Below are positions 8,387-35,211 of a stretch of 64,000 nt of DNA, piece by piece (the stretch's first letter is position 1; each line of letters opens with the position of its first letter). A program made the translations under genes and the position numbers. The notes under the pieces are model-generated. The model was not told the DNA's origin. It searched no databases and saw nothing but the letters and a program-made list of their open reading frames with translations. The stretch lies in the IMG/VR virus record IMGVR_UViG_3300042889_001305. One strand, given 5' to 3'. Source of the DNA: a virus. Taxonomy: Duplodnaviria; Heunggongvirae; Uroviricota; Caudoviricetes.

Positions 8387-8392
8387 GGGCAT

Positions 8393-8424
8393 AAAAAAAG
8401 GGAGAATATTTCTATTCCCCCTTC
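8393..8424 (-). terminator. intrinsic terminator after the major capsid gene
   Basis: GGGGGAATAG-AAA-TATTCTCCC hairpin plus T7 on the minus strand. Confidence 0.8.
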
Positions 8425-8459
8425 TTTATTATCGAATCGTTAGTTTGATTCAGTTAAGA

Positions 8460-10100
8460 CTAGATTGAAGCCAAATCTTTAACATAAATCTTACCATAGA
8501 ATTCTGGACGGACCATCTTCTTAGCGTAACGAGTCATAACACCACGACGAGGCGTGAAGTTAGATGGGTCGTACACTAATGGAGTCATAATCAATGGTAC
8601 ATATGGAGCATAAACCGCACCAGTCTCAAGGAAGTTACTTCCTTTGAATCCTAATAAGATTTCGTTAGAAGTCATATAAGGGTTCTTGTAAACTGTGTAA
8701 CGAGATGCCAAAGAACCTACTTGAGATACACCAGCTGCGAAAGATGTAGCATCTTTATCCGCGTTAACTGAGAAACCAGGAATTGATTCTAAGATAGTAC
8801 AAACATCTGGAGATGCAACGATGAAGTTAGCACCACCACGAAGAGTTAATTGATGAATCTTGTTAGAAACTTTGTTCAATTTAACACCTAATGTTTGGAA
8901 CCATGTATTTTTTTGGTAAGCCAATGAATTGTTACCTGCTGACCAACTACCATCTTGAGAGTTAAACTCTTCACCAATTGTTGCTGACCAATATTCAGTT
9001 GTTAACGCGTTAGACTTTAACATATCTAAGATTTCTAAGTCAATCTCTAAAGAGATATACTCAGATAACATAGAAGTTAATTCAGCCTCAGCATCGATTG
9101 AATGGTATGCATTCAAATCTTGTGCCAATTCCGGTGTCCATACTGCTTTCAACTTACGAGTCTTAGCAACGATTGCCTCAGAACGTAATTCTAAGTCAAC
9201 TTCAGGAATACCTAAATCAGATGCTGGTTCAGAGATACCACCTGCTTGTGTACCATCTTCGAAATCACCACGTGTGTTTGAAGTTGGAGCTTTTGAATAC
9301 TGAACTTCTAAAGATTTTACAGCACTTGCAGATGTTACTTTACCATAGAATACGATATTTGAACCTGAAATTCTTGTTTGACCAGGATAGTATAAATCAG
9401 CTGCTGAAAAAGCAGGTGATTGAACTGCAAATGAACGTACTGCTTCTACATCTAAACTTGGTAATTCTGATGTTGCAGTAACGAATCTTTTAAGAGTACC
9501 AGCTGCTACTGAAGCAGATAAAGCTGCATCGTATCCAACTTCTTGCCAGTTTGCAGAACCAGTTGTTACAGCAGATGCTGCAATTGATTCACTAACATTG
9601 TTAACTGTGTATCCGTAACGTCCTTCACCATAAAGACCGTTTACAGCTGATTTAGTTCTACCATATTCAGAATCAAATGTTGAAGTACCATTACCACCGA
9701 AAAGTGATTTACCTGCGTTAGCAGCATTGAATGCTGGGTTACCATTTACACTTGTTCCGTATTTGAAATCTAGATAGAATATAAGACCTGAAGGTAAGTT
9801 CATTGGTTGAACTGAAACGAATTCTTTCGCTGCAATTTCACCAAAGATTCTTCTTACTAATGGTAAAGCTACGCCAGACCATTCTTCAGAACCTGCTGAA
9901 GTACCAGTTGCGGTAGCTTCATCCAATAATTGTTTCGCTTGGTTCTCTAATAGAACTGCGATTTGAGATTGCTCTCTTTCTTTTAAACCTTCTAAAAGAC
10001 CAGTTGCTTCCCATTTGCTTTTCAATTGACGTGTTTCAGCCAACATTACCGCTTGTGGGTTCTTGCCTTCCATAAGTTTAGATAAATTAAAATTTGCCAT
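8460..10100 (-). CDS. gp23: major capsid protein (T4 gp23 family)
   Basis: VSVQPMNLPSGLIFYL, TRKLKAVWTPELAQDLNAYHSIDAEAEL, YAPYVPL and GVMTRY motifs; 546 aa. Confidence 0.97.
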   Translation of the reverse strand: MANFNLSKLMEGKNPQAVMLAETRQLKSKWEATGLLEGLKEREQSQIAVLLENQAKQLLDEATATGTSAGSEEWSGVALPLVRRIFGEIAAKEFVSVQPMNLPSGLIFYLDFKYGTSVNGNPAFNAANAGKSLFGGNGTSTFDSEYGRTKSAVNGLYGEGRYGYTVNNVSESIAASAVTTGSANWQEVGYDAALSASVAAGTLKRFVTATSELPSLDVEAVRSFAVQSPAFSAADLYYPGQTRISGSNIVFYGKVTSASAVKSLEVQYSKAPTSNTRGDFEDGTQAGGISEPASDLGIPEVDLELRSEAIVAKTRKLKAVWTPELAQDLNAYHSIDAEAELTSMLSEYISLEIDLEILDMLKSNALTTEYWSATIGEEFNSQDGSWSAGNNSLAYQKNTWFQTLGVKLNKVSNKIHQLTLRGGANFIVASPDVCTILESIPGFSVNADKDATSFAAGVSQVGSLASRYTVYKNPYMTSNEILLGFKGSNFLETGAVYAPYVPLIMTPLVYDPSNFTPRRGVMTRYAKKMVRPEFYGKIYVKDLASI

Positions 10101-10134: not shown

Positions 10135-11250
10135 TTATTTAATATTTGCTAATTTCTTGAAACGTTCTGCCATAGAATTGCTTTCTGCTATAATTGTTTT
10201 TGGAGCAGTTGAAGCAACTTTTTTCGATGCGAATGATTCATTCATTTTAGTTTGTTGTTTTACCTTCTTAGCAGTTCCACCAATTTTCATTGATTCAGCT
10301 AATGTAGAGAAAACTAATTTTACTTCTCTAACGTTTTGAGTTCTATCTAAAGTTTCAACAACTTTATGTTTTTGCTCATTAGTTAAATCGTAAGAACGGA
10401 ATAATTTGTTAGTATACAATAATTTTGCATTTAACAAGTTTACTTCGTTGATTGTAGATTTCAAAGATTTGATAACTTTGTATGCTTCTTCTAAATCAGC
10501 TTGTAATTCAGCTTTTTCTTCATCAGCACCTTCTTTCATTTCCTCTTCTTCACCTTCCATTTTTTCGTCATCACCATAACCCATTTCACGTAAGATTTCG
10601 TCTAAGTCGATTTCTTCGTCTTCTTCGGATACTGGTTCTGCTTTTTCGTCACCTTCTGCAAAAGCTTCTGGTTTTTCTTCCTCTTCAACATACTCAGGTT
10701 TTTCAGATTCGAATTTTGCTTCGCCTTTTTCATCACCTTCTTCTGTCATTGGGTCGTTTTTACCATCTAACTCTTGTTCTAGTTCTCTGATAATTTCTTC
10801 TAAATCGAAATCATCTTCATCCATAGGTTCTGCTTTTTCTTCTTCAGCGATTGCGCCAGTTGGGTCGTCGTTAACACCATCACCATTTTCATCTTCATCA
10901 GATTCTGCGATTGTGTTGTTTTCGTCTTCTTTACCTGGTTCTGCTGTTTCTTTGTCAGTATCACCTAATTCTGTGTGTGCATCAGTTGAGATACCCTGTG
11001 GGTCTTTGTTCTCAACATCGCCAAATTTTGTGCTGTCTGCATCCGATGTGTCATCTGCACCATACTCTTCAGTTACATCTGCTGTCTCATCTTCTTCACC
11101 TTCCATTTCGGCTGTGATTTTCTTAGATAAGATAGATTGTAAACGTGGAGTAAAAGCTTCCTCTAATGCGATTTTAGCATTAGCGATTGCAGTTTCACGT
11201 ACGGCTTTAGCATCAGCAATTGCATCTTTCAACAATTTTGAATTTGCCAT
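10135..11250 (-). CDS. prohead scaffold/core protein
   Basis: Very acidic 371-aa protein immediately upstream of the capsid gene; LKDAIADAKAVRETA, NLLNAKLLY and RFKKLANI segments; many [ILVM]xE sites. Confidence 0.8.
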   Translation of the reverse strand: MANSKLLKDAIADAKAVRETAIANAKIALEEAFTPRLQSILSKKITAEMEGEEDETADVTEEYGADDTSDADSTKFGDVENKDPQGISTDAHTELGDTDKETAEPGKEDENNTIAESDEDENGDGVNDDPTGAIAEEEKAEPMDEDDFDLEEIIRELEQELDGKNDPMTEEGDEKGEAKFESEKPEYVEEEEKPEAFAEGDEKAEPVSEEDEEIDLDEILREMGYGDDEKMEGEEEEMKEGADEEKAELQADLEEAYKVIKSLKSTINEVNLLNAKLLYTNKLFRSYDLTNEQKHKVVETLDRTQNVREVKLVFSTLAESMKIGGTAKKVKQQTKMNESFASKKVASTAPKTIIAESNSMAERFKKLANIK

Positions 11251-11448: not shown

Positions 11449-11751
11449 TTAATCTCTTGAGGTGTCTTTATCTGATTGAGGTGTTTTTTTACTAACTTTC
11501 TTTTTCTTTTTAGTAAAAAACCTAATCGTTCTATCACCATCTGCAATCTTACTGAGAGCAACTCTTTTTTGCTCTTCTCTGATTGCCTTTTGTTTTTGTA
11601 ATCTTCTTTTTGTAGTAGGTTTAACGTATTCCTTTCTTTCTCTTAGTTCTAAGAGGTGTCCAGATTCCATAACCTTTTTTTTGAATTTTTTTAAAGCCTT
11701 TGCAATGTCTCCATTACGAACTTCGACTGTAATCCTTGCTAATCCGCTCAT
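11449..11751 (-). CDS. rpsU: phage-encoded 30S ribosomal protein bS21 with basic C-terminal extension
   Basis: VEVRNGDIAKALKKFKKKV...LELRERKEYVKPTTKRR matches the bS21 signature. Confidence 0.9.
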   Translation of the reverse strand: MSGLARITVEVRNGDIAKALKKFKKKVMESGHLLELRERKEYVKPTTKRRLQKQKAIREEQKRVALSKIADGDRTIRFFTKKKKKVSKKTPQSDKDTSRD

Positions 11752-11808: not shown

Positions 11809-13368
11809 TTATTTGCTTAAAAGGAACAATGCTTCTTCAGCTTCTTGTTGATTTTTAATCTTTGGGTCTTTATACATATCTACTTTATATCCTCTTAACG
11901 CATTTGATAAGAATATCATATACTTAGGATGTCCTAATTTTTCTTCTAATGTAGAAAGTGAATCATAGAATGATTGTTCATTTCCTTTATTCATTTTTTC
12001 TGCTGCTTTGAATTCTTCTTTATGTTTATCAATATATGATGCAGTTGAATCTTTATATCCATATGCTGCTTCTTTATTTATTTTTTTACCTGCAGCCACT
12101 GCATCTTTATATGCATCCGAATTTTTATGTGCCGGTGCTTCGCCTCTAGCTTTTTTAGCTCGGATATTTGCCCAAAGACCAGGTTTTTCTTCTTTTATAG
12201 ATTCTTTGAATAGATTTGTAATTATTCCACCTGAAACGTAATCAGGTAACATTTTTTCTAAATCTTTATGGGATACTTTACCCATTTTTTCAACTTTATC
12301 TGCGAAAGCCTTAGTTGATTGATTTTTTCTCATTTTATTTGCAATGAGTTTTGCATCAACTTTTTTATCAGAAACTTCTTCGTTTACGGATTCTGTTTCT
12401 AATTCATTTGCAGGTACTTCAATTGAATAGTATTGGCCAATATCTACGATATAAAATGGAGAACCGGGTGTTTTACCATCAAAACGAACAATTTTACCAG
12501 ATTTACCGCCACGAAGTTTTACTTTTGTTCCTGGTTTTAAAATTGGTTTTGCTTCTTCGTTTACTTTACCACAATCAACACAATTAGTTTTAGATTCTTC
12601 TAATGGCCATTGTTTCAACCACTTTAACCACTCTTTAGTATTCCAATCGTTTCTTTGTCTTGCATCTACTTTCCAGTATTTTGCAAATACATCTTTTAAT
12701 TCTGATTTGTAATTAGCAAAACCGGGTATTTTAGATGTAATGTTTACAAATTCATTTGCACTAGCGTAATGTTCCATTGAGTTAGATAACATATCTACTA
12801 ATGCTAACATTGCTTTATCATTACCTAACGCTTCGTTTACTGATTCATTCTTTGGAACACAATTAGGAACTTGAGCACCACCTTTACCTGGTTTCATTCC
12901 TATCATCTCATATCCTTTCCAACATGGGTCTTTCTCCCCACCTTGTAATTTACCATCTTCTCTCAATCCCAAACGTTCTCTCATTTGTTCTTCAGAAATT
13001 TCACCAATTTTATAGTAACGAGATAGGATATGTCCCATATCTTCGTATAATCCATGTAATCTTTGGTCTAAGTTCTTTGCTTCTATTGCAACTTGGTCGA
13101 ATGATTTACCTAATTTGGTTAATTCATTCATATTACGTTTAACAGTATGTGCATCAAACCAATCATCTGCTTCGTTTACCGCCAATTCTCTAGCTGCATC
13201 GGTAATGCCACCTAAAGTTTCTGCTATCTCAGTAATATCTGATTTTCTATCCATCATTTCTTGATACTTGTTGTATGTAGAAACGATTTCTAAGAAATGT
13301 TTTTTTACTTCGTTAGAAAATCTTTTTGGTTCTTCACCTTCTTTAACTATCTTTGATAAACGTATCAT
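11809..13368 (-). CDS. modular head-associated (internal) polyprotein
   Basis: N-terminus MIRLSKIVKE; modules (DPCWKGY...VPNCV, KOW-like, GLWANIRAKK) separated by ESVNE/ESIKE. Confidence 0.6.
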   Translation of the reverse strand: MIRLSKIVKEGEEPKRFSNEVKKHFLEIVSTYNKYQEMMDRKSDITEIAETLGGITDAARELAVNEADDWFDAHTVKRNMNELTKLGKSFDQVAIEAKNLDQRLHGLYEDMGHILSRYYKIGEISEEQMRERLGLREDGKLQGGEKDPCWKGYEMIGMKPGKGGAQVPNCVPKNESVNEALGNDKAMLALVDMLSNSMEHYASANEFVNITSKIPGFANYKSELKDVFAKYWKVDARQRNDWNTKEWLKWLKQWPLEESKTNCVDCGKVNEEAKPILKPGTKVKLRGGKSGKIVRFDGKTPGSPFYIVDIGQYYSIEVPANELETESVNEEVSDKKVDAKLIANKMRKNQSTKAFADKVEKMGKVSHKDLEKMLPDYVSGGIITNLFKESIKEEKPGLWANIRAKKARGEAPAHKNSDAYKDAVAAGKKINKEAAYGYKDSTASYIDKHKEEFKAAEKMNKGNEQSFYDSLSTLEEKLGHPKYMIFLSNALRGYKVDMYKDPKIKNQQEAEEALFLLSK

Positions 13369-13378
13369 TTATTATCTC

Positions 13379-14650
13379 CTATTTTACTAATTTTGCTAAT
13401 TTTATTGATTCTGATTTAAATGGATTAAATAATCCTCTATTATTTACTTCCTTTTCAGTAGATGGTGCAACTTTTGCATTTTGTTGGTGTTTGTTCTTTA
13501 TTGGATTATATTTTTCCAATTCATCAACATTAACATTACCATCTGCATCGGTCTTAACCTCACCCGATTTATCATCACCCATTCTTACAATACCAACTGT
13601 CTTAGTTCTTTTGTTATAAACTAAATCATCTTTTTTGAATTTACCTTCCTTTACCATTTTAGTTAAAGAAATTCTACCTTCATTCTTTTTAACTGGCTCA
13701 TATCCCCTGTCAACTTTATCTTTTTTCTTAGCATCAGAGTCTTGTACACCCGGTTCATTTGGTTCATTATCATCAAAATCTATTGTATCCTTTTCAGCAG
13801 GAGTTCCCATTTGTTTACCATACATAGATGTAACATGATGTTGATTAAAATCTTGTTCTGCTTCACTATCTTCAGTATTAGAAAGACCTGTATTAAAATG
13901 TTTAGGTTCGTCTTCATTAACCATTTTGGTCAAAGAAATTCTACCTTCATTCTTCATATATGGTTTATTATCAAATACTGATTGAATTAAATCCGCTTCT
14001 TTATGAAATCCATTCATCCTTAATGTAAATGCTATACCATCTGCTGCATCGACTCCGTCCCATCCTGATGCTTGTGATACATCCGTACCATAATCATCAA
14101 TCTCACCAGTTCCGTTCATATAAACCGAACCATCTGCCGAATTCTTACGAATATCATCCATTTTCTCTTTATACTTAGGGTCTTTGATTGATGGGTATTC
14201 AGGTTTCTTTGCAAACTCAGGTTTCCCTTCAATTGCTGCCACTAATTCTCTTGCTTCACTATGGAAGTTTGAATCAGTTAGTGCAGAAACTGCTGCTTGA
14301 AACATTGCTTCTTTATATTTTTCATTACCCAACTTTTGTGGAGTAATTCCTGATTTCTCAGCTAATTTCTTAGCATCTTTATTTACTTTTGGATTACCTG
14401 GTCTTTTCTTTTTAGGTTCTGATGTTGGTGTATCAGCTTTAGGTTCTTCTGCAGGAGTATTAAATATATTTGCAGTTGGTGTAGATGCCTTTTTAGAAGT
14501 ATCACCCCCTTTACCATCTGCTTTTGAGTGAGTTCCTGCTTTGATTGCAGAATCTCTACTATCCTTTGATTTGAACACCGATGTTTTACCGGTCTTCTTA
14601 TTAGTAGCAGTAAACGTTTCTTCGTTAAGTAAATTATTTAATTTAATCAT
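13379..14650 (-). CDS. modular head-associated (internal) polyprotein
   Basis: N-terminus MIKLNNLLNE; internal KNEGRISLTKMV(N/K)E repeated twice (near-identical DNA around 13654 and 13921); ends ESIKLAKLVK. Confidence 0.6.
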   Translation of the reverse strand: MIKLNNLLNEETFTATNKKTGKTSVFKSKDSRDSAIKAGTHSKADGKGGDTSKKASTPTANIFNTPAEEPKADTPTSEPKKKRPGNPKVNKDAKKLAEKSGITPQKLGNEKYKEAMFQAAVSALTDSNFHSEARELVAAIEGKPEFAKKPEYPSIKDPKYKEKMDDIRKNSADGSVYMNGTGEIDDYGTDVSQASGWDGVDAADGIAFTLRMNGFHKEADLIQSVFDNKPYMKNEGRISLTKMVNEDEPKHFNTGLSNTEDSEAEQDFNQHHVTSMYGKQMGTPAEKDTIDFDDNEPNEPGVQDSDAKKKDKVDRGYEPVKKNEGRISLTKMVKEGKFKKDDLVYNKRTKTVGIVRMGDDKSGEVKTDADGNVNVDELEKYNPIKNKHQQNAKVAPSTEKEVNNRGLFNPFKSESIKLAKLVK

Positions 14651-14669
14651 TAGTTGATGTTCCTATATT

Positions 14670-15110
14670 TTAAAATCCTATTGAGACCGTTTTGTTGTCA
14701 AATTCTATCCAACGTATTTTTAGTGAAATTAATAATTTCAAATCACTAACATCCATTCTCCAATTTTTTTCTGCCATTTCAATATCAGCGATATTACCAT
14801 GAATACCATCCCAAATTGTAATAACTTTACCATTAAAGAATTTTAAGAATTGTTGTACTTGTTTTTGTTTAGCAGCATCTAATTCTTTTAATTCAATTTC
14901 CGATGCTTCTTTAATTACCCTTTTAGTTTCAGTTAATACAGTTTTATGTGTATAAAGGTCTAACTTACCATCGGCTTTAATCTTAACCTCATAGTTAGTC
15001 TTACGAATATCGTTATGACCACCCTTAAAAGGTGTATCACCAACTTCTTTCTTAATACTACCCATTTCTATTTTGTTATCTCTTAGATAATCTTGTATTG
15101 AAAATGCCAT
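14670..15110 (-). CDS. head-module hypothetical protein
   Basis: 146 aa; AAAGGA upstream; contains VLTE/VIKE sites. Confidence 0.6.
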   Translation of the reverse strand: MAFSIQDYLRDNKIEMGSIKKEVGDTPFKGGHNDIRKTNYEVKIKADGKLDLYTHKTVLTETKRVIKEASEIELKELDAAKQKQVQQFLKFFNGKVITIWDGIHGNIADIEMAEKNWRMDVSDLKLLISLKIRWIEFDNKTVSIGF

Positions 15111-15120
15111 ATTGTATCCT

Positions 15121-15720
15121 TTATGCTAATTCAGTAATGATTTCTCTCATAAGGTCTTGTGCCTTACAATACTCACCACAAACTATAGCTTGTTCTTTTA
15201 ATTGTCTATTTACTGATTCGTTCATCGTAACCGGTGTCATAAATGCACCATGTGTAGATGGGTTAGAAACAAAATCCCAACCAATCAGTTCAAAATCATC
15301 ACCCACTTTTACTTTACCTTCGCCAATGTTAACTACCGAACCCATACCACGAGAGGAAATACCCAAAAGGATACCTGCTCTTAATAATTCTTTTAAGATG
15401 TTACCGGATGGAGTTGGTAAAATTTCTACTGTCCCACAAAGGTCATCACCTTCCCAATGAATTTCTTTTACGTTATGTGAAACATTCTTTAAATTGATAA
15501 TACCAGAATCTGGGTGGTCTAATTCCCCTAATGCACGTCTTTCTTTAATAAGAACTTCGTATTTCTTTGCTTCACGCATTAGGATTTCTTTAGGGTATAT
15601 ACGACCATTTTGGTTTTCTGCAACCGCTCTTTGAAGAATACCTTTAACTAAGGTTCTACCACTTGAATCTTCATTCAATTTTCCTTCAAATAATGTTGTT
15701 TCTATTAATAAATTTTTCAT
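15121..15720 (-). CDS. gp21: prohead core protease (T4 gp21 family)
   Basis: NQNGRIYP, RALGELDHP, GISSRGMGS and DFVSNPS motifs; start taken at MKNLLIE, coupled to the upstream stop codon (TAATG). Confidence 0.95.
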   Translation of the reverse strand: MKNLLIETTLFEGKLNEDSSGRTLVKGILQRAVAENQNGRIYPKEILMREAKKYEVLIKERRALGELDHPDSGIINLKNVSHNVKEIHWEGDDLCGTVEILPTPSGNILKELLRAGILLGISSRGMGSVVNIGEGKVKVGDDFELIGWDFVSNPSTHGAFMTPVTMNESVNRQLKEQAIVCGEYCKAQDLMREIITELA

Positions 15721-15896
15721 TATGCTCCCCAAGTTTTTCTCTTTTTAAAGAGGTCAAAAAATATTGCAGATACTTCTCTACGAATGATATCACGAATAAG
15801 TTTTTCATCCTCAGTTGTGATTTCTTCTTTGACGATACCCCATTTTACTTTGGTTATCTCTTCGTTAATGATATCTAACAATCTTTTTCGTGTCAT
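15720..15896 (-). CDS. 58-aa hypothetical protein missing from the ORF track (MTRKRLLDIINEEITKVKWG...KRKTWGA)
   Basis: Hand-translated; fills the gap exactly and its TAA overlaps the gp21 ATG. Confidence 0.75.
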   Translation of the reverse strand: MTRKRLLDIINEEITKVKWGIVKEEITTEDEKLIRDIIRREVSAIFFDLFKKRKTWGA

Positions 15897-15898
15897 TG

Positions 15899-16357
15899 TT
15901 ATTTTTTCTTTACTGATTCTACTATATGTAGAACAAAATCACCATTACCATTTGATTTTACTACTTTATATTCCTTTTTCTTACCACCGGAATTAATAGT
16001 AATTTTTTCACCCACTTTAAGTGCGTTTTTATCACCAGTTTTTAATATAGCAGGTCCATCGTAATCTTCGTTTACTTTTTTACCAGCTCTTAAATCTGCT
16101 AAATCATCACTACCGATATCACCATCTTTATCAACATCTAATTTCTTTTGACCGCCCACTAATTCTTCATTCTTCTCGCCCTTACCATTCCATGCTGCAT
16201 CAATTTTATCAAAGAATGCTTTCTTTTCTTCATCTGACATAGATGGAATTGATTTTCCAGCTTTATCTAATGCTTTTTGAAAGAATTCCTGATATTCATT
16301 TTCTTCAGTCATTACTCCTTTGATGATTTCTTTTAATCTTGTACGTGATATTTTCAT
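15899..16357 (-). CDS. head-associated protein with EF-hand/dockerin-like loop
   Basis: 152 aa; LDVDKDGDIGSDDLADLR; N-terminus MKISRTRLKEIIKGVMTE. Confidence 0.6.
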   Translation of the reverse strand: MKISRTRLKEIIKGVMTEENEYQEFFQKALDKAGKSIPSMSDEEKKAFFDKIDAAWNGKGEKNEELVGGQKKLDVDKDGDIGSDDLADLRAGKKVNEDYDGPAILKTGDKNALKVGEKITINSGGKKKEYKVVKSNGNGDFVLHIVESVKKK

Positions 16358-17856
16358 TATTTTTCTATCTCCTGTATTGTTTTCGCTATGTTGATTAATC
16401 GTTCCTTTATCTTATAAATATGTCCGTGCGTTCTTTTCCAAAATGTATCGGAACTCAATTCATTCATAGTCTTAATTTGATTATACCAACGGAAAAAAGT
16501 TTCAACCTCTTTTAATTGATATTTTAATTCTCTCAAACCAGTCGCTAACTTCTTATTAGCATGCATTGATTCATCATTTTTTAATTCTAACCAACGATTT
16601 ACCGGTCTTTGAATTCGTTTTCCCTCTGATAAACTCTCATCCATATGTTCCAAACCATATTTCATAATAGTTTTATCATCTAACATCTTACCATTAAGAG
16701 TAAACATACGTTTACCTTTATAATAAACTGACCAATTACCTTGTGGGGTTGCATCGACAGTGATATTCTTTAAATCCTTTATACTTCTATCATTAACTTG
16801 AATAGCATCTAAGAATTTTTCTGCTTTAGGGTCTAATGCTTCGTTTACTGATTCATTTGTTGATACAAATAATCTTACTGAAAGAATTACATCTTTATCT
16901 ATATTTAAACTTCTTACTTTATTTTTTTCTAAATCGTAAGCCGGATTGATTGTATTTGCTCTTGCAATTACACCATCTTTAATAAAATGTGGCTGTAATC
17001 CAGAGTAGTTATCATCTCTAAACATAAAAACATCTTTAGGAGAATCCTTAGATATTTTAATTATTTTCTTTAAACCTTCTTTACCAATAAAGCATCCACC
17101 TTCACATTTACTTCCACCATAAGTTTTACCTTTTTGTAATGATGCTTCGTTTACTGATTCAAATAATGCTCTGTCTCCACTAATATCCTGTTTATCAAAA
17201 TATGCTATTTTCTTTTTACCTTTTTCTATTTGATATACCTTCCATCCTTTGTTGGTTGGTTCAATTAGTTCTATCTCAATATTTGGATTATGTTTATGAG
17301 TAAGTTTATCTCCTGATTTATTTGCTTCGTTTACTGATTCTTTTAGTTTACTTACATAATCTGCTACAACATCATTAACTGTCTTTTGTATCAATTGTAA
17401 GTATTTTGGGTCATCTTCGGTTCGTACTCTTACAGCGGTTTTACCCTGTTGTGTTAATTTTAATGCTACCTTTCCATTAGCATGTGTTAAATTATAATGC
17501 CTAACATCTAATGTATAGTTTTTAAGTTTTTCTGCCATTTTTAAACCAACAGATACATCTGCATGACCTAATTTTTGTTGTGGTAAACTCGATGCGGGGG
17601 TTGTACTAATAATATAATCCGGTGATTTGAATTTTGCTTCATTTACCGATTCATCAATATTATTAATATCATTATTTACTAATGTATAACCGAATTGTGT
17701 TGCAGTTTTTTTTCTTTTTTTATCAGAATTTTTACCAGAAAAGGCATGAGGAGTATCATAGCCATCAACATTACCTGTCACATTGGCTTCATCTAATTCA
17801 TCTTCGACTTCCTTAATAAGTTCGTCTATAAAAGATTTAATATTTTTTTCTGACAT
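16357..17856 (-). CDS. modular head-associated polyprotein with four ESVNEA linkers
   Basis: 499 aa; LDE-ANVTGNVDGYDTPHAF N-terminal module; 4x ESVNEA plus ESLSE. Confidence 0.65.
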   Translation of the reverse strand: MSEKNIKSFIDELIKEVEDELDEANVTGNVDGYDTPHAFSGKNSDKKRKKTATQFGYTLVNNDINNIDESVNEAKFKSPDYIISTTPASSLPQQKLGHADVSVGLKMAEKLKNYTLDVRHYNLTHANGKVALKLTQQGKTAVRVRTEDDPKYLQLIQKTVNDVVADYVSKLKESVNEANKSGDKLTHKHNPNIEIELIEPTNKGWKVYQIEKGKKKIAYFDKQDISGDRALFESVNEASLQKGKTYGGSKCEGGCFIGKEGLKKIIKISKDSPKDVFMFRDDNYSGLQPHFIKDGVIARANTINPAYDLEKNKVRSLNIDKDVILSVRLFVSTNESVNEALDPKAEKFLDAIQVNDRSIKDLKNITVDATPQGNWSVYYKGKRMFTLNGKMLDDKTIMKYGLEHMDESLSEGKRIQRPVNRWLELKNDESMHANKKLATGLRELKYQLKEVETFFRWYNQIKTMNELSSDTFWKRTHGHIYKIKERLINIAKTIQEIEK

Positions 17857-18774: not shown

Positions 18775-20505
18775 TTAATTTTCCGTATCATCGATAATAT
18801 TAGTTTCATCTAACATATCTTTAGTTTCGTGTAAATATTTCTTTTTTGATGAAATCCCATTGATGTAATTCATTGCTTTTGTTTCAGATGTTCTACTTCT
18901 CTTTGAAGTTCTCTCATCATCACCTAATGGGTCTCTTCCATAAGGATGTTTGTCTTTACCATAAGTATTACCTTCGCGGGGTCTACCACCTTTATCCTTC
19001 AATTCTGTTTTAAGATTTTCTAAACTTTCTTCAACATCATTTTGTTTTGGAGGGTTTGCAGGGTCATTACCATCGTTTTCTATTGAGTTATAACGGAATG
19101 TATCTTTTAAATCCTCAACCACTTTACCTCTTTGTTCAGTTTGTTCTGTTTCTGATAATTTAAATATATTTTCATATATCCAATCTTTAGATAACATCTT
19201 TAAACTTTGCATATCAGTTGCTAAACGGATTTTCTCACTCCATAAGTTTACTTTCTCTTGTTCGTAGATTGTAGATGGGTTAACTAATCCAATTTCAAAA
19301 TTAGTCATTTCAGAATCTTGAATACCATTACCATATAAGTGGATAACTGCTATTTTAGATAATTCTGAAGTAATTGTTCGTTGGATTCTTTCGATTGTTC
19401 TTGCAAAACGTACATCTTCTGCTGCTAGGGTTGCTTTACCATTTACATTTTCATCATATCCCAAATATGCTTTAGGAATTTTTAATGCTGCAAATAATTT
19501 AGCTTTTAAGTAATCAATATCTTCAATTGAAGCGTATTCTAATCCTGCTAAGTTTTCAATAGCAGTTCCACTATCACCACCTCTTACTGGTAGATAAAAA
19601 TCTTCCGTAAGGTTTTGCATATTATACTTTAAATTGTAATCACCACTTGTCTTATCTAAGAATGGAACTTTTTTCATCTTATTGATAATCTTTTGCATGT
19701 AGTTATCAACTTCCGTTGGTGGAATATTACCAATATCAATTTTGAACACTCTTTTTTCAGGTGCTCTCATAATACGATGGATTAACATAGCATCTTCCAT
19801 TAGGGATAATTGTTTCCACAACCTTCTACCATTCTCAATCATTGATTTACCATAAGGTAACCAGTTTGTATCTGATAATAAACGGAAATGTGCCATTTCA
19901 AAATTATCATACTCTACTTTACCGATTGGGTCTTCTTGTACTTTGAATTTAACAAGTGAAGTATTCTCAGGGTCATGTCCTTCTATTCTTTCAGTATTGT
20001 ATTGTGAGTGTGGAGTAACGTTTACTATACCTTTACCTTCAGCAATCTCAAGTCCTAAAAAGAAATCACCATATTTACACATATTACGTGTCCACGGCCA
20101 TAAGTTAAATTCAACATTAAGAATATCATAGAAAAGGTTTTCTAATAATTCTTGTACTCTTTGATTATCTGAACGTATTGTTAAAATATCACCAAATTCA
20201 TTTTTAAGTGTAGATTCATCAGCGTAAATATCTAATGCAGATGCTATAATTGGGTCTTGGTCCATTGCATCAAAATCTCTAAATACTTCTCTACGAACTT
20301 GAGCGTATGCCATTGATTGTGCACCACCCGCTTGTTCATAAAAAGATTTTTGTATTTTTGTGTATCTATCTTTTAGTGAAGATAGATTTGTTTGTTGTTT
20401 TTCATCCGCATCAAAAACTTTTCGTTTTCCACTAGCATCGACAGTAACTATCGCCTTTGTTGAGAAAAGTTTTTTTAACCGATTGAAAAATGTAGTATCT
20501 GCCAT
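18775..20505 (-). CDS. gp20: portal protein (T4 gp20 family)
   Basis: LMEDAMLIHRIMRAPEKRVFKIDIGN, EDFYLPVRG and ALKIPKAYL motifs. Confidence 0.97.
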   Translation of the reverse strand: MADTTFFNRLKKLFSTKAIVTVDASGKRKVFDADEKQQTNLSSLKDRYTKIQKSFYEQAGGAQSMAYAQVRREVFRDFDAMDQDPIIASALDIYADESTLKNEFGDILTIRSDNQRVQELLENLFYDILNVEFNLWPWTRNMCKYGDFFLGLEIAEGKGIVNVTPHSQYNTERIEGHDPENTSLVKFKVQEDPIGKVEYDNFEMAHFRLLSDTNWLPYGKSMIENGRRLWKQLSLMEDAMLIHRIMRAPEKRVFKIDIGNIPPTEVDNYMQKIINKMKKVPFLDKTSGDYNLKYNMQNLTEDFYLPVRGGDSGTAIENLAGLEYASIEDIDYLKAKLFAALKIPKAYLGYDENVNGKATLAAEDVRFARTIERIQRTITSELSKIAVIHLYGNGIQDSEMTNFEIGLVNPSTIYEQEKVNLWSEKIRLATDMQSLKMLSKDWIYENIFKLSETEQTEQRGKVVEDLKDTFRYNSIENDGNDPANPPKQNDVEESLENLKTELKDKGGRPREGNTYGKDKHPYGRDPLGDDERTSKRSRTSETKAMNYINGISSKKKYLHETKDMLDETNIIDDTEN

Positions 20506-20578: not shown

Positions 20579-22162
20579 TTATTTAATCAACCAAGTCAAA
20601 TCTTCGTCTTGATTACCCACTCTCATTGACCACGGATTATCATCCATTGAACTACCACCATAGAAACCAGATTCTTGTATTTGTTGTTGAATTCCACCTA
20701 ATGATTTGATAGTTAAATCAATTCCTTCCTGTCTTAATCTCAATGCGGTATCTCTAACCCATAGAGCAATCGATAACGCCATCACTAAGTCATCATTGTA
20801 TCCCCTCATTGCTTCTGCACGATTGTTGTTCCATATAAAGGTAAAAAGCTCCTCTATCAACCTATTAGAACGTATGGTGATAGATTTCTCTCTGAAGTAA
20901 TCATCCAACTTTGAAATAATTAGAGGTCTTGTCTTAGATGTGGTTGAAAATCCTGCAACCATACCTCTTTCTTCCGCCCTAAACTTATTATGCATCTGAT
21001 GTTCTACATCTACATACTTTAAATCCTTACTCATATAGAATAAGTTTTTATATCCTCTATCAATTACTTGCTGGATAACTGCCCAACCAATATTTGCGTT
21101 CTCTATTACTAAAAGTGCTTCGTTATAATCAGTTGCTAAGGAAACTAAGAAATTTCCAAAATCTTTTGTATCTAATTTTCCTTTGTATTCTGCTACTTGT
21201 ACCGAATTAACAATATCAATCACTTGTGCGGCGGAGTAATCCGTAGAATCTCCACGTGCAACGTCCGCAACAACCATATATGATTTTTGATAATCGGGAT
21301 ATTCCCATTTCCAAAGATTTCCATCAAAGCCAGTTTTTTCTAATGGTTCTTGTACAAAAGATTCTTTATAAAACATTAGAAGTTGTGGGTCTATGACACT
21401 ATCACCGGATGATACGAAATCGCAATCACATTCCTGTGCTGCACCCTTTGCTCCCAAAAGTACTTGTTGTTCATCTCTCCATTCTTGATTTCTTTCGGGG
21501 TGAACCGTCCAATGTAAACGGACTGTATTGAATCCATTAGTTCCATCCTCTGCACCAACCCAAGTCCTATGAAAGAAATTACCCACACCATTAGGAGTAG
21601 AAAGAATAATTGCATTACCACCCGTTGATAGAGTAGATTGTGCAGATATCCAAATTTCTTCAATGTTATCAATGAATGCTGCCTCATCAAATACTAATAG
21701 GGATAGTGCTTCAGAACGACCAGCATCACCTGCTGCAGAAGTTGCTTTTGCCTGTGAACCATTTGAGTATCGTAATGAAAGTTTATTATCTTCAACTGTT
21801 GTTTGTTTTAACCAACTAGGTAAATATTGATTCATTACCCTAATTTTAGTAATAAGGTTTTTAGCAACTTCTTGTTTAGTTGCAATTACCAATACGTTAA
21901 AATCTTGATTAAATAACATTTTCCACAATGCAAATCCCGCAGTTAAGGTAGATATACCAGTTTGACGAGATTTTAGAATGATGTTATATCGATGGTCTTT
22001 GAATTGTGTTAGTGTATTTTCTTGAAATGGATATAAATGAAATGGTATTTTACCGCGGACAGGGTGCTGAATCATACAATACTTTTTCATAAAGTATATA
22101 GGGTCACCAGCACATCGTTGGTATTCTAATTTTATTATATCTTTTAATGAAGCACCTGCCAT
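20579..22162 (-). CDS. gp17: terminase large subunit (T4 gp17 family)
   Basis: ILKSRQTGIST (Walker A), LLVFDEAAF (Walker B), STPNG, ADVARG and DDLVMAL nuclease motifs. Confidence 0.97.
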   Translation of the reverse strand: MAGASLKDIIKLEYQRCAGDPIYFMKKYCMIQHPVRGKIPFHLYPFQENTLTQFKDHRYNIILKSRQTGISTLTAGFALWKMLFNQDFNVLVIATKQEVAKNLITKIRVMNQYLPSWLKQTTVEDNKLSLRYSNGSQAKATSAAGDAGRSEALSLLVFDEAAFIDNIEEIWISAQSTLSTGGNAIILSTPNGVGNFFHRTWVGAEDGTNGFNTVRLHWTVHPERNQEWRDEQQVLLGAKGAAQECDCDFVSSGDSVIDPQLLMFYKESFVQEPLEKTGFDGNLWKWEYPDYQKSYMVVADVARGDSTDYSAAQVIDIVNSVQVAEYKGKLDTKDFGNFLVSLATDYNEALLVIENANIGWAVIQQVIDRGYKNLFYMSKDLKYVDVEHQMHNKFRAEERGMVAGFSTTSKTRPLIISKLDDYFREKSITIRSNRLIEELFTFIWNNNRAEAMRGYNDDLVMALSIALWVRDTALRLRQEGIDLTIKSLGGIQQQIQESGFYGGSSMDDNPWSMRVGNQDEDLTWLIK

Positions 22163-22887: not shown

Positions 22888-25800
22888 TTATGCGTAAAAA
22901 ATACCCAATAATTGATTCAGAGAGGCGAATGCTCCTGTTAATTTGAATGTCTGTCCGTTATATACAAATACAATTCCTTCGATTGGTACGATTCTTTTAG
23001 CACCACCAATTGCATTTAATCTTTTAAGTTCTAATTTTAGTTTATCTATCTTCTTAGGGTCTCCACTTGCCTGAACATCCTTTATAGTTTGTTCTAAACG
23101 TTTCTTCATATCCCTTAGAGCGGAATCTGGATTAACTGTTAATACCGATGCGGTAAATTCTAATACATCTGCCCCAACTCCTAAGAAAATATCTTCAAAT
23201 TTCATTAAGTTATCTTTTGAAATACCCTTATGGTCTTCTTTATCTATCTTAGTAGCCCATGCAAGAGTTTTTTCATCCTTAATTGAATTCTTATCAATAC
23301 GAAATCCCTTTTCGTTAAACGCCCATCTCTTAACTAACCCCATTTTAGTGGCGTTATCTAATGTAGTTGGTGTTTTCTTATCTACAAAGTTCTCCCACCA
23401 TGCTTGATGGTAATCGGCAACACCTGCAGTATCTCCTAATCCAAATTCTTTTTGTAATTTAGATATCATAGTAAGATACTTACCTTTCTTAGATGATAGG
23501 TCTTGTGATTTTGGTAACTTTAATACCGGTGGCCCTTGTAGTGTATACTTTGATTGAACATCTGCGTTTACTTGTTTAAGCATTCCACCCAATACTCTAC
23601 CTGCTTCTGCCGATTCCCCTATTGCATCACCATTCTCATCGTACTCCATTGTTCCGTGAAATACTAATAATGGTTGTCCGTAAGGAATGACGTTGACTGA
23701 GGTAGGATATATCACCTCTATGTTCATAAAACACGAACCATTCTTAAATACCTTATCTTTTTGTGATTGGGATAATGATTTTATAGCATTAGATAGGTCT
23801 TTCATCGCAAAATTGTAGGCATCAGTTAATTCACCTCTACCCGCAAACTTATCTGCTACTCCGTTGATATCTAACGCCCCTGCACCTTTGTTTTTCAAAT
23901 GTGATTTGTTTCTTGCTGCTACTAATCTACCATCTATCCAACTAATTGCTAATGCTTGACCATCGGTTTTCTCTCTAGCAAATTCTAAGTTACCATCCAA
24001 TGCACGATTTACAATATCTTTAAGTTGACCAAATGTTAAATTGATTTCAGTATCAAACGGATGATTCATATGTCCATATGCACCACCTTCCATTATTAGG
24101 GATTCATTTATTGATTCCGTATTTAAAGATAATAAATCCCAATCTAATTCTTTACTATCAAAATCAATGCCATTACTATAAACATCTTTTACTATTACAC
24201 CTACTTGTTTCATTTGGTTTGCTAAATCCTTAACAACATTTGGTTTCATATTAATAAGACTTACCGAACCTGCACCATTATATTCATACCCACTTCCCTC
24301 ATATTTACGGAAACCTCTTACACTAGTACTATATGATTCTACTTTTTTTATACGATTCTTTTTAAAAATAGCATTTATTTCTTTTTTTACAATATTTCTT
24401 TCAGCTTCATTTATAGATTCAGTTGTGAATACAGGAGTAGATGATTTGAAATCAGCTTTTCTCATTACCGTCTTAGCAATCAATCTATTAGCCACTTTAA
24501 TAAATGCTATATTGATATTTGATACTCTATCTTTAACTACAAACTCTTTATATTGTTTTAGGAACTCTAAAAATTTCTTTTTGTTTCTAGCCAATCTTTT
24601 GAATAATCCTGTTAATTCTGCAGGAGATATTTCTTTACCATTTCGCGGGTCGTTTAACCTTTGAAAGAAATGGTCAGTTTCTTTTCCTAAATCAACATCA
24701 GTTGGATTCATTTGTGAATCGGCATATTTTTCAACCGCATCCATATCGGTTTTTGCCATTTCAACTTTAACTTTTTCTCTTAATACTGCACTTTGAGATG
24801 AATAAAAGTATCTATCAATTAATTTATTTTCTAATTTTTTAAATCCAATATTTTTATGACAATTATGGAATGGATTTTGTTGTTTCACCAAAAGTATTTG
24901 ATGTGTTATCTCGTGTAATATTGCCCTTTCTATATCAGTAACCTTACTCAAATCAAAAGTAATATATTCTGGTATAAATGTTTTAGTATCAAATGTAGTT
25001 GCAGCACCTGCACGACCAACTGAACCAAATTTAATTGCGATGGGTTTTATCTTTAAATCTTTACAAATTTCTTTGTAGTAATTTACAACACTTTCTTTTT
25101 TAACTTCGGTTAATGGTTCGTTAGGTATATCATCAACTTGTACCGCTATTTCCTCTAAATCATCTTGACCTGAATCTTTTACTTTAAAATTAGCTTTTTT
25201 ATTATCGTATTTTCTCGAATGTGTTCTTGCCCAATCTGCGTAATTATTAACTGTTCCATCATAGTAATAATTTTCTTTAATATCACCCTTTTCATCTTTG
25301 TTAGAATTAAATGATTCTATTGCAGAAGCCATTACTTCATTTGGTATTTTTGCACTTTCTAATTTCTTACTTATAATAGCTATGAATTTTAACATATCTG
25401 CATCTGATTCTTCCTCTCCTGCAAATAGTGCTGCTTTACCTGCACCTATTGCTATAGTTTCAACAACTATATGAGGAATAAATTCCACCATTAAGTGTTT
25501 ACCAAAAGCAGCAGCTCCATGTGCCAAACCACCACCAGCCGCACCAAATGTTGCTGCTAATGCAACTTTTTTAGCTACACTAATTAAAGCCTTTTTTTCA
25601 GAATCAGAAACTTTACCACCACTAAAAAAGTTTTTAACACCACTACCGGCTTCTTTAAACAAATGAACTTCATGTTTAGCACCATGTTTAATTGCTTCTA
25701 ATGCACCTTTAGCTTTGTCTTTAACTGCTTCTCCAAAACTTCTTCGTTCTGGTGATTCTCCCTTGTGTACTTTTTGTATGAAAAATTGTTTTTCGTCTAT

Positions 25801-27840
25801 ACTCCAATTCTTTACACCATCTTTAATTTTTTGAAGAGCCATTGGAGCATTTTTATTTATATCTACCTTTGGAGTATCTCGTGGTGTTTCTTCTTCATCA
25901 TAGTTAAATTCACCATCGTAATCTAGTATCTTTACAGGTAATTTTTTACCATATGCAGTAAATGACATTAAACGAGTATTTCCTGCTAATAAATGCAATT
26001 TACCATTCTTATCTCTTAATACTAATGGTGGAGGAACATCACTACCACCTTCAATACCTTTTTCTAATCTATCCCAATCTTTACCATATTCATCTGCAAG
26101 TTCTTTACCTCTTGCTTTCATCGAATCTTTGCCACCCTCTTCACTTGCCGAAAGAATATCACCAACATCAGTATTACTCATGTTTTGTAGTTCTTCAGAT
26201 GAGATATAAACAGGTTTAGCATCTTTCATTTTTTGAATCATTTCTGATTCATCTTTAAATGCGTTTGGTGCAACTTTCTTAGTTACATCATTTTCAAAAT
26301 ATTCACCCGTTTCACCTTTATATTCTTCATCACTATAATCTCTGATGGTGGTTACTTTTGCTCTATCATCATCTAAAATTTCCCAACCATCTTTTCCACT
26401 TGTCCAATCTTCAGCCGGTTCTTTTGTAGGTTCTTGTTTTGGTTCTTCTTTAGGTTGTTTAACACTTTTATCGTGTTTAAACATATCCGCCCCTTGTACT
26501 GCTTGACCAGTTGGTTTAGCTTCACCACCCTTATCATCTCCCCCAATAGGACTATATTTTCCACTATCATCTTTTTTAAATAGTGGTGCACCTTCTACAT
26601 CTTTTTTACTTTTTTCTTTGTATTTACCATACCCAACGTGCACGTATTTATCATCTTCGCCATCACTTTCAAATAGTGAATCTAATAAATCAGAATAATC
26701 AGATATTAATTCTGAAATAGAATCTTTTTGTTTTACTTTCTTTTTCAATCGTTTTTCCACCTTTTCAATTTTTTCAATATCTTGAGTTACATCAACATCA
26801 TCGAAACCAAATGGATATGTAGTTGGTTTATTCAAACTTCTAGCGTTGTTTTTTGATTTGATTTTAAATGTTATTTGGTTTTCATCATCTGCTGCGTAAA
26901 TTGCATCTGCTTTAGGGAAATCAGTTTGAGTATAACCACCCCTAACAAACCACTCATCACTACTATTAACACCATCATCTCCACCCAATACTCTTGCTTT
27001 ACCTTTTGGTAGGTATCCACCATCTGGTTGTGAATCTTCTCCACCAGAAACTGTTGCTGCTTCTTTAAAAATATTTTGTTTTGGTATTATTCTAAATGTA
27101 GCTACTTTTTTACCATTAATGGTTGGCATTCCATGTTCATCTTTGCCAATTGATTTAACTACTGTTTTTTTATTTTTAAATTTACCCATTAAAATAGTAT
27201 CGCCTATTTCAACATCTAATTTAATTTCTTCTTTTATAGATTCACTCAATTTATCCAATTTAAGTGTAATCAATTTAAATATTTTTTCATCAAACTTTGG
27301 ATATGCTTTTAAAAATCCTGCTTTCCTTTGTTCTTCATCGCCCTTGCTTAACCAATTTCGTACATTAGTACCGGATATTGGGTTTGATTGTGAGGGGGAA
27401 ACGTATACATAACCTTTATCTTTATATCCTTGTTCTATCTTACCTTTATATTTCTCAAAATACTTTCCACCCAATCTCATCTCATCTTTTTCACCAACAA
27501 CACTTATATAACCAGTTGTAGTTTCATCAAAGTTTTTTAAGATTTCAGTTGGTGCATAAGGATTCTTAATCTCAACTATTTTGTTTGATGGAATACCAAA
27601 CATTTTAGTCATGATTATTTTCTTTTCCTTAAAATTAAATGGAGATTGTCTATTATCGGTTTTATTAGATGTTCCAATAAACACTTTATCCTTACCAAAC
27701 TTTTTACAAAGATTTTGATAAGTTGCGTAGTGACCCTTATGAAAAGGCTGGAATCTGCCTGAATATACTACAACAAAGTTGCGTAATTCAGTTTCTTCTA
27801 ATAAAATTTGATTGACAAGATATTGACTTAGTTCATTCAT
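22888..27840 (-). CDS. 1650-aa multidomain protein: HxGH nucleotidyltransferase + ParB-like + HExxH + ligase-like nucleotidyltransferase
   Basis: YSGRFQPFHKGH; PPLVLRD...LLAGNTRL; ILHEITH; EGGAYGHMNHP...EKTDG...EGIVF...FKLTG; domains separated by ESIKE/ESINE. Confidence 0.65.
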   Translation of the reverse strand: MNELSQYLVNQILLEETELRNFVVVYSGRFQPFHKGHYATYQNLCKKFGKDKVFIGTSNKTDNRQSPFNFKEKKIIMTKMFGIPSNKIVEIKNPYAPTEILKNFDETTTGYISVVGEKDEMRLGGKYFEKYKGKIEQGYKDKGYVYVSPSQSNPISGTNVRNWLSKGDEEQRKAGFLKAYPKFDEKIFKLITLKLDKLSESIKEEIKLDVEIGDTILMGKFKNKKTVVKSIGKDEHGMPTINGKKVATFRIIPKQNIFKEAATVSGGEDSQPDGGYLPKGKARVLGGDDGVNSSDEWFVRGGYTQTDFPKADAIYAADDENQITFKIKSKNNARSLNKPTTYPFGFDDVDVTQDIEKIEKVEKRLKKKVKQKDSISELISDYSDLLDSLFESDGEDDKYVHVGYGKYKEKSKKDVEGAPLFKKDDSGKYSPIGGDDKGGEAKPTGQAVQGADMFKHDKSVKQPKEEPKQEPTKEPAEDWTSGKDGWEILDDDRAKVTTIRDYSDEEYKGETGEYFENDVTKKVAPNAFKDESEMIQKMKDAKPVYISSEELQNMSNTDVGDILSASEEGGKDSMKARGKELADEYGKDWDRLEKGIEGGSDVPPPLVLRDKNGKLHLLAGNTRLMSFTAYGKKLPVKILDYDGEFNYDEEETPRDTPKVDINKNAPMALQKIKDGVKNWSIDEKQFFIQKVHKGESPERRSFGEAVKDKAKGALEAIKHGAKHEVHLFKEAGSGVKNFFSGGKVSDSEKKALISVAKKVALAATFGAAGGGLAHGAAAFGKHLMVEFIPHIVVETIAIGAGKAALFAGEEESDADMLKFIAIISKKLESAKIPNEVMASAIESFNSNKDEKGDIKENYYYDGTVNNYADWARTHSRKYDNKKANFKVKDSGQDDLEEIAVQVDDIPNEPLTEVKKESVVNYYKEICKDLKIKPIAIKFGSVGRAGAATTFDTKTFIPEYITFDLSKVTDIERAILHEITHQILLVKQQNPFHNCHKNIGFKKLENKLIDRYFYSSQSAVLREKVKVEMAKTDMDAVEKYADSQMNPTDVDLGKETDHFFQRLNDPRNGKEISPAELTGLFKRLARNKKKFLEFLKQYKEFVVKDRVSNINIAFIKVANRLIAKTVMRKADFKSSTPVFTTESINEAERNIVKKEINAIFKKNRIKKVESYSTSVRGFRKYEGSGYEYNGAGSVSLINMKPNVVKDLANQMKQVGVIVKDVYSNGIDFDSKELDWDLLSLNTESINESLIMEGGAYGHMNHPFDTEINLTFGQLKDIVNRALDGNLEFAREKTDGQALAISWIDGRLVAARNKSHLKNKGAGALDINGVADKFAGRGELTDAYNFAMKDLSNAIKSLSQSQKDKVFKNGSCFMNIEVIYPTSVNVIPYGQPLLVFHGTMEYDENGDAIGESAEAGRVLGGMLKQVNADVQSKYTLQGPPVLKLPKSQDLSSKKGKYLTMISKLQKEFGLGDTAGVADYHQAWWENFVDKKTPTTLDNATKMGLVKRWAFNEKGFRIDKNSIKDEKTLAWATKIDKEDHKGISKDNLMKFEDIFLGVGADVLEFTASVLTVNPDSALRDMKKRLEQTIKDVQASGDPKKIDKLKLELKRLNAIGGAKRIVPIEGIVFVYNGQTFKLTGAFASLNQLLGIFYA

Positions 27841-34811: not shown

Positions 34812-35211
34812 TATTCCACATTTGTATTATTTCTTCATCATCATCATAAGCACAGAATACGTCTGATTTGATTATAGTTTCATATACTTTCTTTTTATAC
34901 ACCGATGCTTTTAAAAAATATGAACTACGATTTCGCATAATTAATTGGTCGTATTCTATTTCATATTTTTTTAACCATTCTTCCGTAACGCTTTTAACTG
35001 ATTCTGGTCTTCCTGTTAAAATAATAACTTCAAATCCATCTTTTTTATATTTTTTTGCCAAATCAATCATAGGATATAATGGTTTATCATTTTTTATAAG
35101 TTCTACACTATGTGCAATATCCCAATTAATTTTTCCGTTTTCTTTTTTTGCTATAGCAAATCTTTCATTACTAATACAAAGTGTATTATCTATATCAATT
35201 ATTACTTTCAT
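34774..35211 (-). CDS. HAD-family phosphatase (T4 PNK 3'-phosphatase-like)
   Basis: IIDIDNTL, ILTGRPE, LIMR and YDDD motifs. Confidence 0.8.
   Translation of the reverse strand: MKVIIDIDNTLCISNERFAIAKKENGKINWDIAHSVELIKNDKPLYPMIDLAKKYKKDGFEVIILTGRPESVKSVTEEWLKKYEIEYDQLIMRNRSSYFLKASVYKKKVYETIIKSDVFCAYDDDEEIIQMWNSVGISCFKVYGL

Follow-up and report, generated by a model that had tools for sequence, protein, structure and literature searches.

A linker conserved as peptide and as DNA is the site of cassette exchange in the genes flanking the prohead protease of a T4-like lake phage

The window analyzed here is a whole 64,000-nt stretch of DNA (IMG/VR record IMGVR_UViG_3300042889_001305) from an uncultured T4-like lake phage, in which the genes flanking a T4 gp21-type prohead protease, termed A to E, contain unrelated protein modules (cassettes) separated by a standard in-frame linker, Glu-Ser-Val-Asn-Glu (ESVNE). 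We found that this linker is selected at both the peptide and the DNA levels and that it is the site at which cassettes are gained, lost, reordered, and transferred between genes in very close relatives. The interpretation that we favor, with moderate confidence, is that these genes encode prohead-core proteins with in-frame cassettes that are cut by the gp21-type protease, packaged, injected, and re-dealt at the linker. A few genes would thereby probably supply the capsid with a small-protein cargo whose composition can change.

Scanning the window with the 17-mer GAATCAGTAAACGAAGC detected exact copies at 12830, 16838, 17144, and 17324, copies with two mismatches at 12377 and 17636, and copies with three mismatches at 24101 and 24404. 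All eight copies lie on the minus strand, whereas shuffled sequences yielded 0.17 matches on average and none of 100 shuffles reached eight. The four exact copies and the two with two mismatches are translated in frame as ESVNE(A/E) within two open reading frames (ORFs), gene A (499 aa) and gene E (519 aa), reproducing the counts and positions given in an earlier note that had been made from this sequence. The same note had described the linker as a separator of unrelated modules. Consistent with this description, similarity among the DNA stretches around the copies ends where the 17-mer ends, and the intervening segments are mutually unrelated and have no family match in Pfam or PHROGs. In addition, the conserved word begins with GAATC, a GANTC (CcrM-type methylation/HinfI) site, in all linker copies, for example, that at 17324-17340.

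Identical 15-mers, GAATCAGTAAACGAA, were present at 67 of 131 linker sites with distinct contexts. When the sites were grouped so that neither flank was alike, yielding 47 independent groups, the identical 15-mer was found in 31 of these unrelated-flank groups, against about 4% expected from background codon usage. The linker Ser was encoded by TCA in 42 of the 47 groups (background, 0.36), the Val by GTA in 42 of 42 (background, 0.47), and the Asn by AAC in 38 of 47 (background, 0.365), while the conserved Ser, Val, and Asn columns of orthologous gene B displayed a major-codon share of only 0.46 to 0.79. When related loci were searched at the DNA level for the 15-mer core, with up to two mismatches allowed, 168 sites were retrieved on the coding strand and none on its complement; the mismatches clustered at the third positions of codons and where Val is replaced by Ile. 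Together, the restriction to the coding strand, the mismatch pattern, and the codon bias indicate that the peptide is selected and that its synonymous sites are also held or homogenized. The linker also matches the T4 rule [LIV]-x-E, with a hydrophobic residue at P3 and Glu at P1, and ES[VI]NE was restricted to the protease-flanking genes among 80 related contigs. A 2A-like ribosome-skipping or frameshift role of the linker was considered and dropped, as the frame is continuous and the motif is unlike such signals.

The proposal in the earlier note that modules are shuffled by recombination at the linker was borne out by comparing the window with its relatives. A viral contig, G001, has 97-98% DNA identity to the window across the block but differs from it by a series of cassette changes. 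In its gene A, A1 and A2 are absent, with an unrelated 50-aa module in their place, and an extra 72-aa module lies between A3 and A4. B2 is located inside gene E, and gene B terminates in another module. An unrelated module occupies the place of D2 in the middle of gene D, and in gene E, which has gained B2, E3 and E4 stand in reverse order and E5 is missing. Collinearity with G001 extends over the first 25.9 kb of the window, within which the rearrangements are concentrated in 12075-17630, and the homology blocks all begin and end within the linker-type word, with 9-21 nt in common and at times just GTAAACGAA. Contigs from other lake samples showed the same joints as G001 and, in addition, a joint 16836→17323 with 18 letters common to both sides, which corresponds to a linker-to-linker deletion of A2 and A3. 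The breakpoints in G001 and in these independent metagenome contigs are all on linkers; holes in metagenome contig cover were ignored in this comparison. Contigs from RNA libraries cover parts of the genes, but since such contigs can contain DNA, they were not counted as proof of expression. D2 is bordered by a 15-residue direct repeat, KNEGRISLTKMV(N/K)E (13646-13690 and 13913-13957), and G001 carries another module between the same repeats; this repeat represents a longer version of the joint that is specific to gene D.

The wider comparison included 80 viral contigs with protease identities of 77-100%. Neither module order nor module content was invariant among relatives: 120 representative homologues of gene E displayed 59 architectures built from 68 module clusters. 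Some gene-E homologues elsewhere include a gene A module (A3) or a gene D module (D3-like) of the window, and a library-wide search with gene A retrieved each of its modules alone, at varied positions in proteins of 100-890 aa, with ESVNE on both sides. Nearly all relatives have A0 and A5, and the anchors B1, D1, and E1 are likewise kept, but the cassettes are not; A1-A4 were confined to close relatives or else turned up, bordered by ESVNE, at different positions or in different genes.

The phage of the window belongs to lake-water metagenomes and resembles the bS21-encoding Bacteroidetes phages of PMC9723584, in which the head-block neighbors are named merely hypothetical proteins. No close relative was found in the phage isolate database; the nearest cultured phages are Microcystis phage Mel-JY01 (protease 56% identical) and Flavobacterium phage immuto (52%), both with the same gene order. 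The gene A and gene E homologues of Mel-JY01 are short (178 and 154 aa), and the homologues in Mel-JY01 and immuto are without linker arrays. Since these homologues are short and cassette-free, the cassette arrays are an addition to the core genes.

The head genes of the window are all on the minus strand and follow the T4 order: terminase, portal, a 289-aa protein, A, B, C, protease, a 146-aa protein, D, E, bS21, scaffold, and capsid (Table 1). The bS21 gene shares this strand, whereas its counterparts in the bS21 phages of PMC9723584 are encoded on the opposite one. In the protease, the expected His and Ser motifs are retained as GELDHP and GISSRG; PDB 5jbl has Ala at the two corresponding positions, suggesting that this entry is an inactivated mutant. 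Near the C-terminus of the protease, MNE|SVN aligns with ITE|S of T4. The scaffold and capsid proteins contain [LIVM]-x-E sites at the cut positions of their T4 homologues, and LLE52 and LDE61 of the capsid protein are near the aligned mature N-terminus of T4 gp23.

Table 1. Positions in the window of the head-block genes, their parts, the linker copies, and a linker-bearing ORF upstream of the terminase gene
Feature	Coordinates	Strand	Remarks
Gp23-like major capsid protein	8460-10100	-	
Acidic scaffold protein	10135-11250	-	net charge -59
bS21 gene	11449-11751	same as head genes	between gene E and scaffold gene
Gene E, 519-aa polyprotein	11809-13368	-	
E6	11812-12069		conserved tail
E5	12070-12189		cassette
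E4	12190-12378		cassette
E3	12379-12555		cassette
E2	12556-12831		cassette
E1	12832-13368		conserved
Linker copy E3/E4	12377-12393	-	2 mismatches, ESVNEE; metagenome joint 12073→12383
Linker copy E1/E2	12830-12846	-	exact
Gene D, 423 aa	13379-14650	-	
D3	13382-13645		cassette
D2	13646-13912		cassette
D1	13913-14650		conserved
146-aa protein	14670-15110	-	conserved head component; C-terminal half (after VIKE) also found elsewhere
Prohead protease, T4 gp21 family (Peptidase_S77)	15121-15732	-	PF03420, 8.8e-27; phrog_207; PDB 5jbl, 1.2e-18
Gene C, 58 aa	15720-15896	-	small conserved head-block protein
Gene B, 152 aa	15899-16357	-	
B2	15902-16066		cassette
B1	16067-16357		conserved, end KKVNE
Gene A, 499-aa polyprotein	16357-17856	-	4 cassettes between anchors A0 and A5
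A5	16360-16623		C-terminal anchor
A4	16624-16839		cassette
A3	16840-17145		cassette
A2	17146-17325		cassette
A1	17326-17637		cassette
A0	17638-17856		N-terminal anchor
Linker copy A3/A4	16838-16854	-	exact; extra 72-aa module inserted here in G001
Linker copy A2/A3	17144-17160	-	exact; start of G001 homology block
Linker copy A1/A2	17324-17340	-	exact; metagenome joint 16836→17323, 18 shared letters
Linker copy A0/A1	17636-17652	-	2 mismatches, ESVNEA; G001 homology stops here
Conserved 289-aa protein	between portal and gene A	-	
Portal, T4 gp20 family	18775-20505	-	PF07230, 3.6e-68
Large terminase	20579-22162	-	
1650-aa ORF	22888-27840	-	same linker kind: ESIKE at aa 200 (27229-27243), ESINE at 24404-24420 and 24101-24117

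Genes B to E begin with leaders of about 10 residues with an ending of the [LIV]-x-E type: MKISRTRLKE (B), MTRKRLLDIINE (C), MIKLNNLLNE (D), and MIRLSKIVKE (E). The earlier note had quoted these N-termini correctly and had likened them to capsid-targeting peptides, a likeness that stands for length and for the [LIV]-x-E ending. In the window, leaders of this kind are confined to genes A-E, with a looser one at the 1650-aa ORF. Several cassettes occur in other phages directly behind a leader. A1 alone forms a 110-aa gene in which the module follows the leader MIKLKDLLGE (P0260 and L097), and this gene is located directly upstream of a D-like gene starting with MIKLKGLVKE. A3 alone forms a 104-aa gene behind MKSLKE within an array of small MIKL-leader genes (P0192 and L098), and A4 follows MKLKDLIKE in P0254. 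These stand-alone genes indicate that a module preceded by ESVNE in one genome can be preceded by an [LIV]-x-E leader in another. A 747-aa gene-D homologue in L025 (8064-10307) consists of two D-type genes fused head to tail; the second of these retains its leader internally (...KSITE SMKLRNLLNE ETFTAT...) and therefore shows a route from separate leader-bearing genes to one polyprotein. The 146-aa head component is itself treated as a cassette, as its C-terminal half is a separate 90-aa gene with the leader MIKLTQLNE in another phage (L098 2440-2712) and is fused behind A4 in P0254.

The cassettes are 40-105 residues long, most of them 6-12 kDa with a pI of 8-10. An alignment of A3 contained 22 invariant columns in 38 sequences with identities down to 43%. 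Since MAFFT placed module fragments wrongly at the repeated linkers of gene A, we modeled the single modules A1 and A3. The A3 model had a mean pLDDT of 84 and a pTM of 0.74, with values below 50 for the residues of its closing linker, which is thus modeled as disordered and exposed; the A1 model had a pLDDT of 76. The models and the alignment indicate that the cassettes are folded domains under purifying selection. Ten separate modules searched against Pfam and PHROGs gave only sub-threshold noise. A Foldseek search of modules, suggested in the earlier note, was run for the two modeled ones, both of which fold confidently; Foldseek against PDB, AlphaFold clusters, and BFVD, together with an Atlas shape search, gave nothing better than an E value of 0.03 or a TM score of 0.5, so that no known fold was matched. 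Weak structural matches of the GyrB, acetolactate-decarboxylase, and BON types were not taken as findings.

In the interpretation that we favor, the protease-flanking genes would encode prohead-core proteins composed of a leader of about 10 residues, conserved anchors (A0/A5, B1, D1, and E1/E6), and cassettes each closed by E-S-[VI]-N-E. The leader and the anchors would carry the whole chain into the prohead core, where the protease would cut after the Glu of each linker, as T4 gp21 does after [LI]-x-E, releasing the individual cassettes, which at 6-12 kDa would be small and mostly basic proteins. The freed cassettes may then be retained in the DNA-filled head and pass into the host along with the genome, by analogy with the T4 internal proteins. 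With the linker kept as one DNA word, any pair of linkers could recombine, so that cassettes would be excised, inserted, reordered, and moved between genes; as this would keep the frame and the cut sites intact, the cargo set would turn over fast. Recombination at linkers is shown by the genome comparison, whereas the proposed cleavage, carriage, and delivery are supported by a motif that fits the T4 protease rule, its interchangeability with the leader ends, and a turnover like that of conflict genes.

Several points weigh against this interpretation. Our literature searches found no proteome of a linker-carrying relative. No cassette matched a known effector, anti-defense protein, or fold in the Pfam, PHROGs, and structure searches. 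The likeness of the leaders to the T4 capsid-targeting sequence is limited to length and ending. In addition, something other than recombination, such as the GANTC in the word, could account for the synonymous-site conservation. Finally, the cleavage products of T4 core proteins mostly leave the head, and the cassettes could simply be discarded.

The last of these points leads to an alternative in which the linkers are cut but the cassettes are a disposable scaffold or core filler, like the fragments of T4 gp22, gp67, and gp68; they would leave the head or be degraded and play no part in the next host, and their variability would be neutral churn permitted by the recombinogenic linker. The location of the genes in the scaffold/core block between the portal and capsid genes would fit this explanation, as would the lack of a recognizable function in any cassette and the general exit of propeptide fragments from the heads of tailed phages (PMC10052503). 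However, neutral filler does not account for the fold and the purifying selection of a cassette such as A3, nor for a size and basicity like those of the T4 internal proteins, and the retention of the same modules as separate leader-bearing genes in other phages is hard to explain. We therefore regard it as unlikely that the cassettes are filler.

It is similarly improbable, in our estimation, that the chains remain uncut and act as intact multi-domain proteins of the polyvalent type, with ESVNE as a neutral joint kept for in-frame recombination. Phage polyvalent proteins can indeed be packaged unprocessed (PMC5512222), and both the DNA conservation in excess of codon usage and the confinement of all breakpoints to the linker would be expected of such a joint. 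In contrast, the peptide itself is selected, since the mismatches fall at synonymous or Val/Ile positions; the linker matches the known specificity of the T4 protease family, a member of which is encoded nearby; modules preceded by the linker here follow an [LIV]-x-E leader in other phages; and the linker is modeled as disordered and exposed.

A third alternative treats the 15-17-nt word first of all as a DNA signal, such as the target of a site-specific recombinase, homing nuclease, or methylase (GANTC), with ESVNE secondary. This would accommodate linker synonymous sites that are more conserved than orthologous conserved codons, but it is the least likely explanation and a very remote one, because the word is found strictly in frame and never on the noncoding strand, its variants respect the genetic code, neither a recombinase nor a nuclease gene was found alongside the arrays in the window or the 80 related loci, and the variable junction homology fits homology-driven exchange rather than a fixed cut.

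Returning to cassettes that are cut, packaged, and injected, we compared this proposal with known systems. Full-text literature searches turned up no account of phage polyproteins whose cassettes are linked by protease sites. The diverse internal proteins of T4 share only a capsid-targeting sequence, which is removed by gp21 (PMC3012670). As with T4 IPI, IPII, IPIII, and Alt (PMC3012670), the window combines T4-type head genes and a gp21-family (Peptidase S77) protease with leaders that reach hydrophobic-x-Glu after about 10 residues; the cargo is likewise small, mostly basic, highly diverse, and without known families, and some relatives carry the very same modules in the T4 format of one cargo per leader. 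Unlike the T4 internal proteins, however, several unrelated cargos follow one another in a single frame within conserved core proteins, with genes A and E each carrying four cassettes behind one leader, and the genes lie beside the protease gene rather than in a separate IP locus. The internal putative cut-site linker is fixed at the DNA level. The system thus looks like that of the T4 internal proteins, differing in the several cargos per leader.

The polyvalent proteins (Iyer, Burroughs, Anand, de Souza, and Aravind 2017; PMC5512222) also carry many domains per chain and show architectural mosaicism, as seen here in the gene-E homologues; their delivery with the DNA has been proposed and their processing by proteases discussed (PMC5512222). 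None of the polyvalent conflict domains (MPTase, ART, ParB-like, and methylase/helicase) was detected in genes A-E or their modules with Pfam and PHROGs. In contrast to polyvalent proteins, the putative processing here would involve the prohead protease acting at a standard linker, not a built-in peptidase, and the linker is also a DNA-level recombination joint. In this respect the arrays resemble the PeSL cassettes of T4-type genomes (Arbiol et al. 2010, PMC2839356), in which a short conserved repeat between variable ORFan units directs recombination, and units are inserted, deleted, or replaced between near-identical phages with their neighbors undamaged. Whereas the PeSL is an intergenic regulatory element of about 100 bp, composed of an early promoter and a stem-loop, that moves whole genes, the joint here is a coding, in-frame sequence of 15-17 nt that moves protein modules within genes. 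In the giant phages phiKZ, 201phi2-1, and SPN3US, head and ejection proteins are cut several times per chain, with the protease gp245 cutting after A-x-E (PMC10052503). The short x-x-Glu motif and its several sites per chain are alike in our system, in which cutting is predicted, but the giant-phage cuts remove or fragment the propeptides of single proteins, and neither strings of unrelated modules nor a DNA-conserved linker or cassette exchange has been described for them.

More broadly, we tentatively propose, with somewhat less confidence than for the prohead-core interpretation itself, that a widespread clade of lake phages of Bacteroidota may possess an in-frame cassette system for injected proteins, in which one linker would be both a prohead-protease cut site and a recombination joint. 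Dozens to hundreds of small ORFan proteins, likely serving counter-defense or takeover, would form a common pool that is loaded combinatorially into capsids and very rapidly redistributed among genes and genomes, comparable at the level of proteins to the cassettes of integrons or PeSLs. If excision from the chain and injection do take place, one late gene would deliver several unrelated small proteins at infection in fixed ratios, and a phage population could re-deal this cargo via a 15-nt word without frameshift or loss of the cut site. This would explain a fast-evolving first-strike arsenal of large aquatic phages inside a conserved structural block, and would provide a sequence rule (leader or linker plus module) by which hundreds of candidate injected proteins could be harvested from metagenomes. 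It also offers a model from nature for engineering T4-like capsids that take up foreign proteins in the form of cleavable strings. In the conservation of its synonymous sites, the linker clearly exemplifies a short sequence under selection both as peptide and as DNA.

Outside the head block, the linker-bearing 1650-aa ORF upstream of the terminase gene has an N-terminal cytidylyltransferase-like domain. At its ESIKE site, G001 contains an extra module of about 275 aa ending with ESVSE (G001 55353-56179). A second stretch of 526 nt (25896-26421) is also replaced in G001. An insertion of about 3.2 kb by the capsid gene of G001 (32977-36226, with L016 1-183; compared with 8389-8442 in the window) is absent from the window, and its end encodes a GIY-YIG-like N-terminus (MDKIYKLTAPNGKVYIGRT...), probably that of a homing endonuclease.

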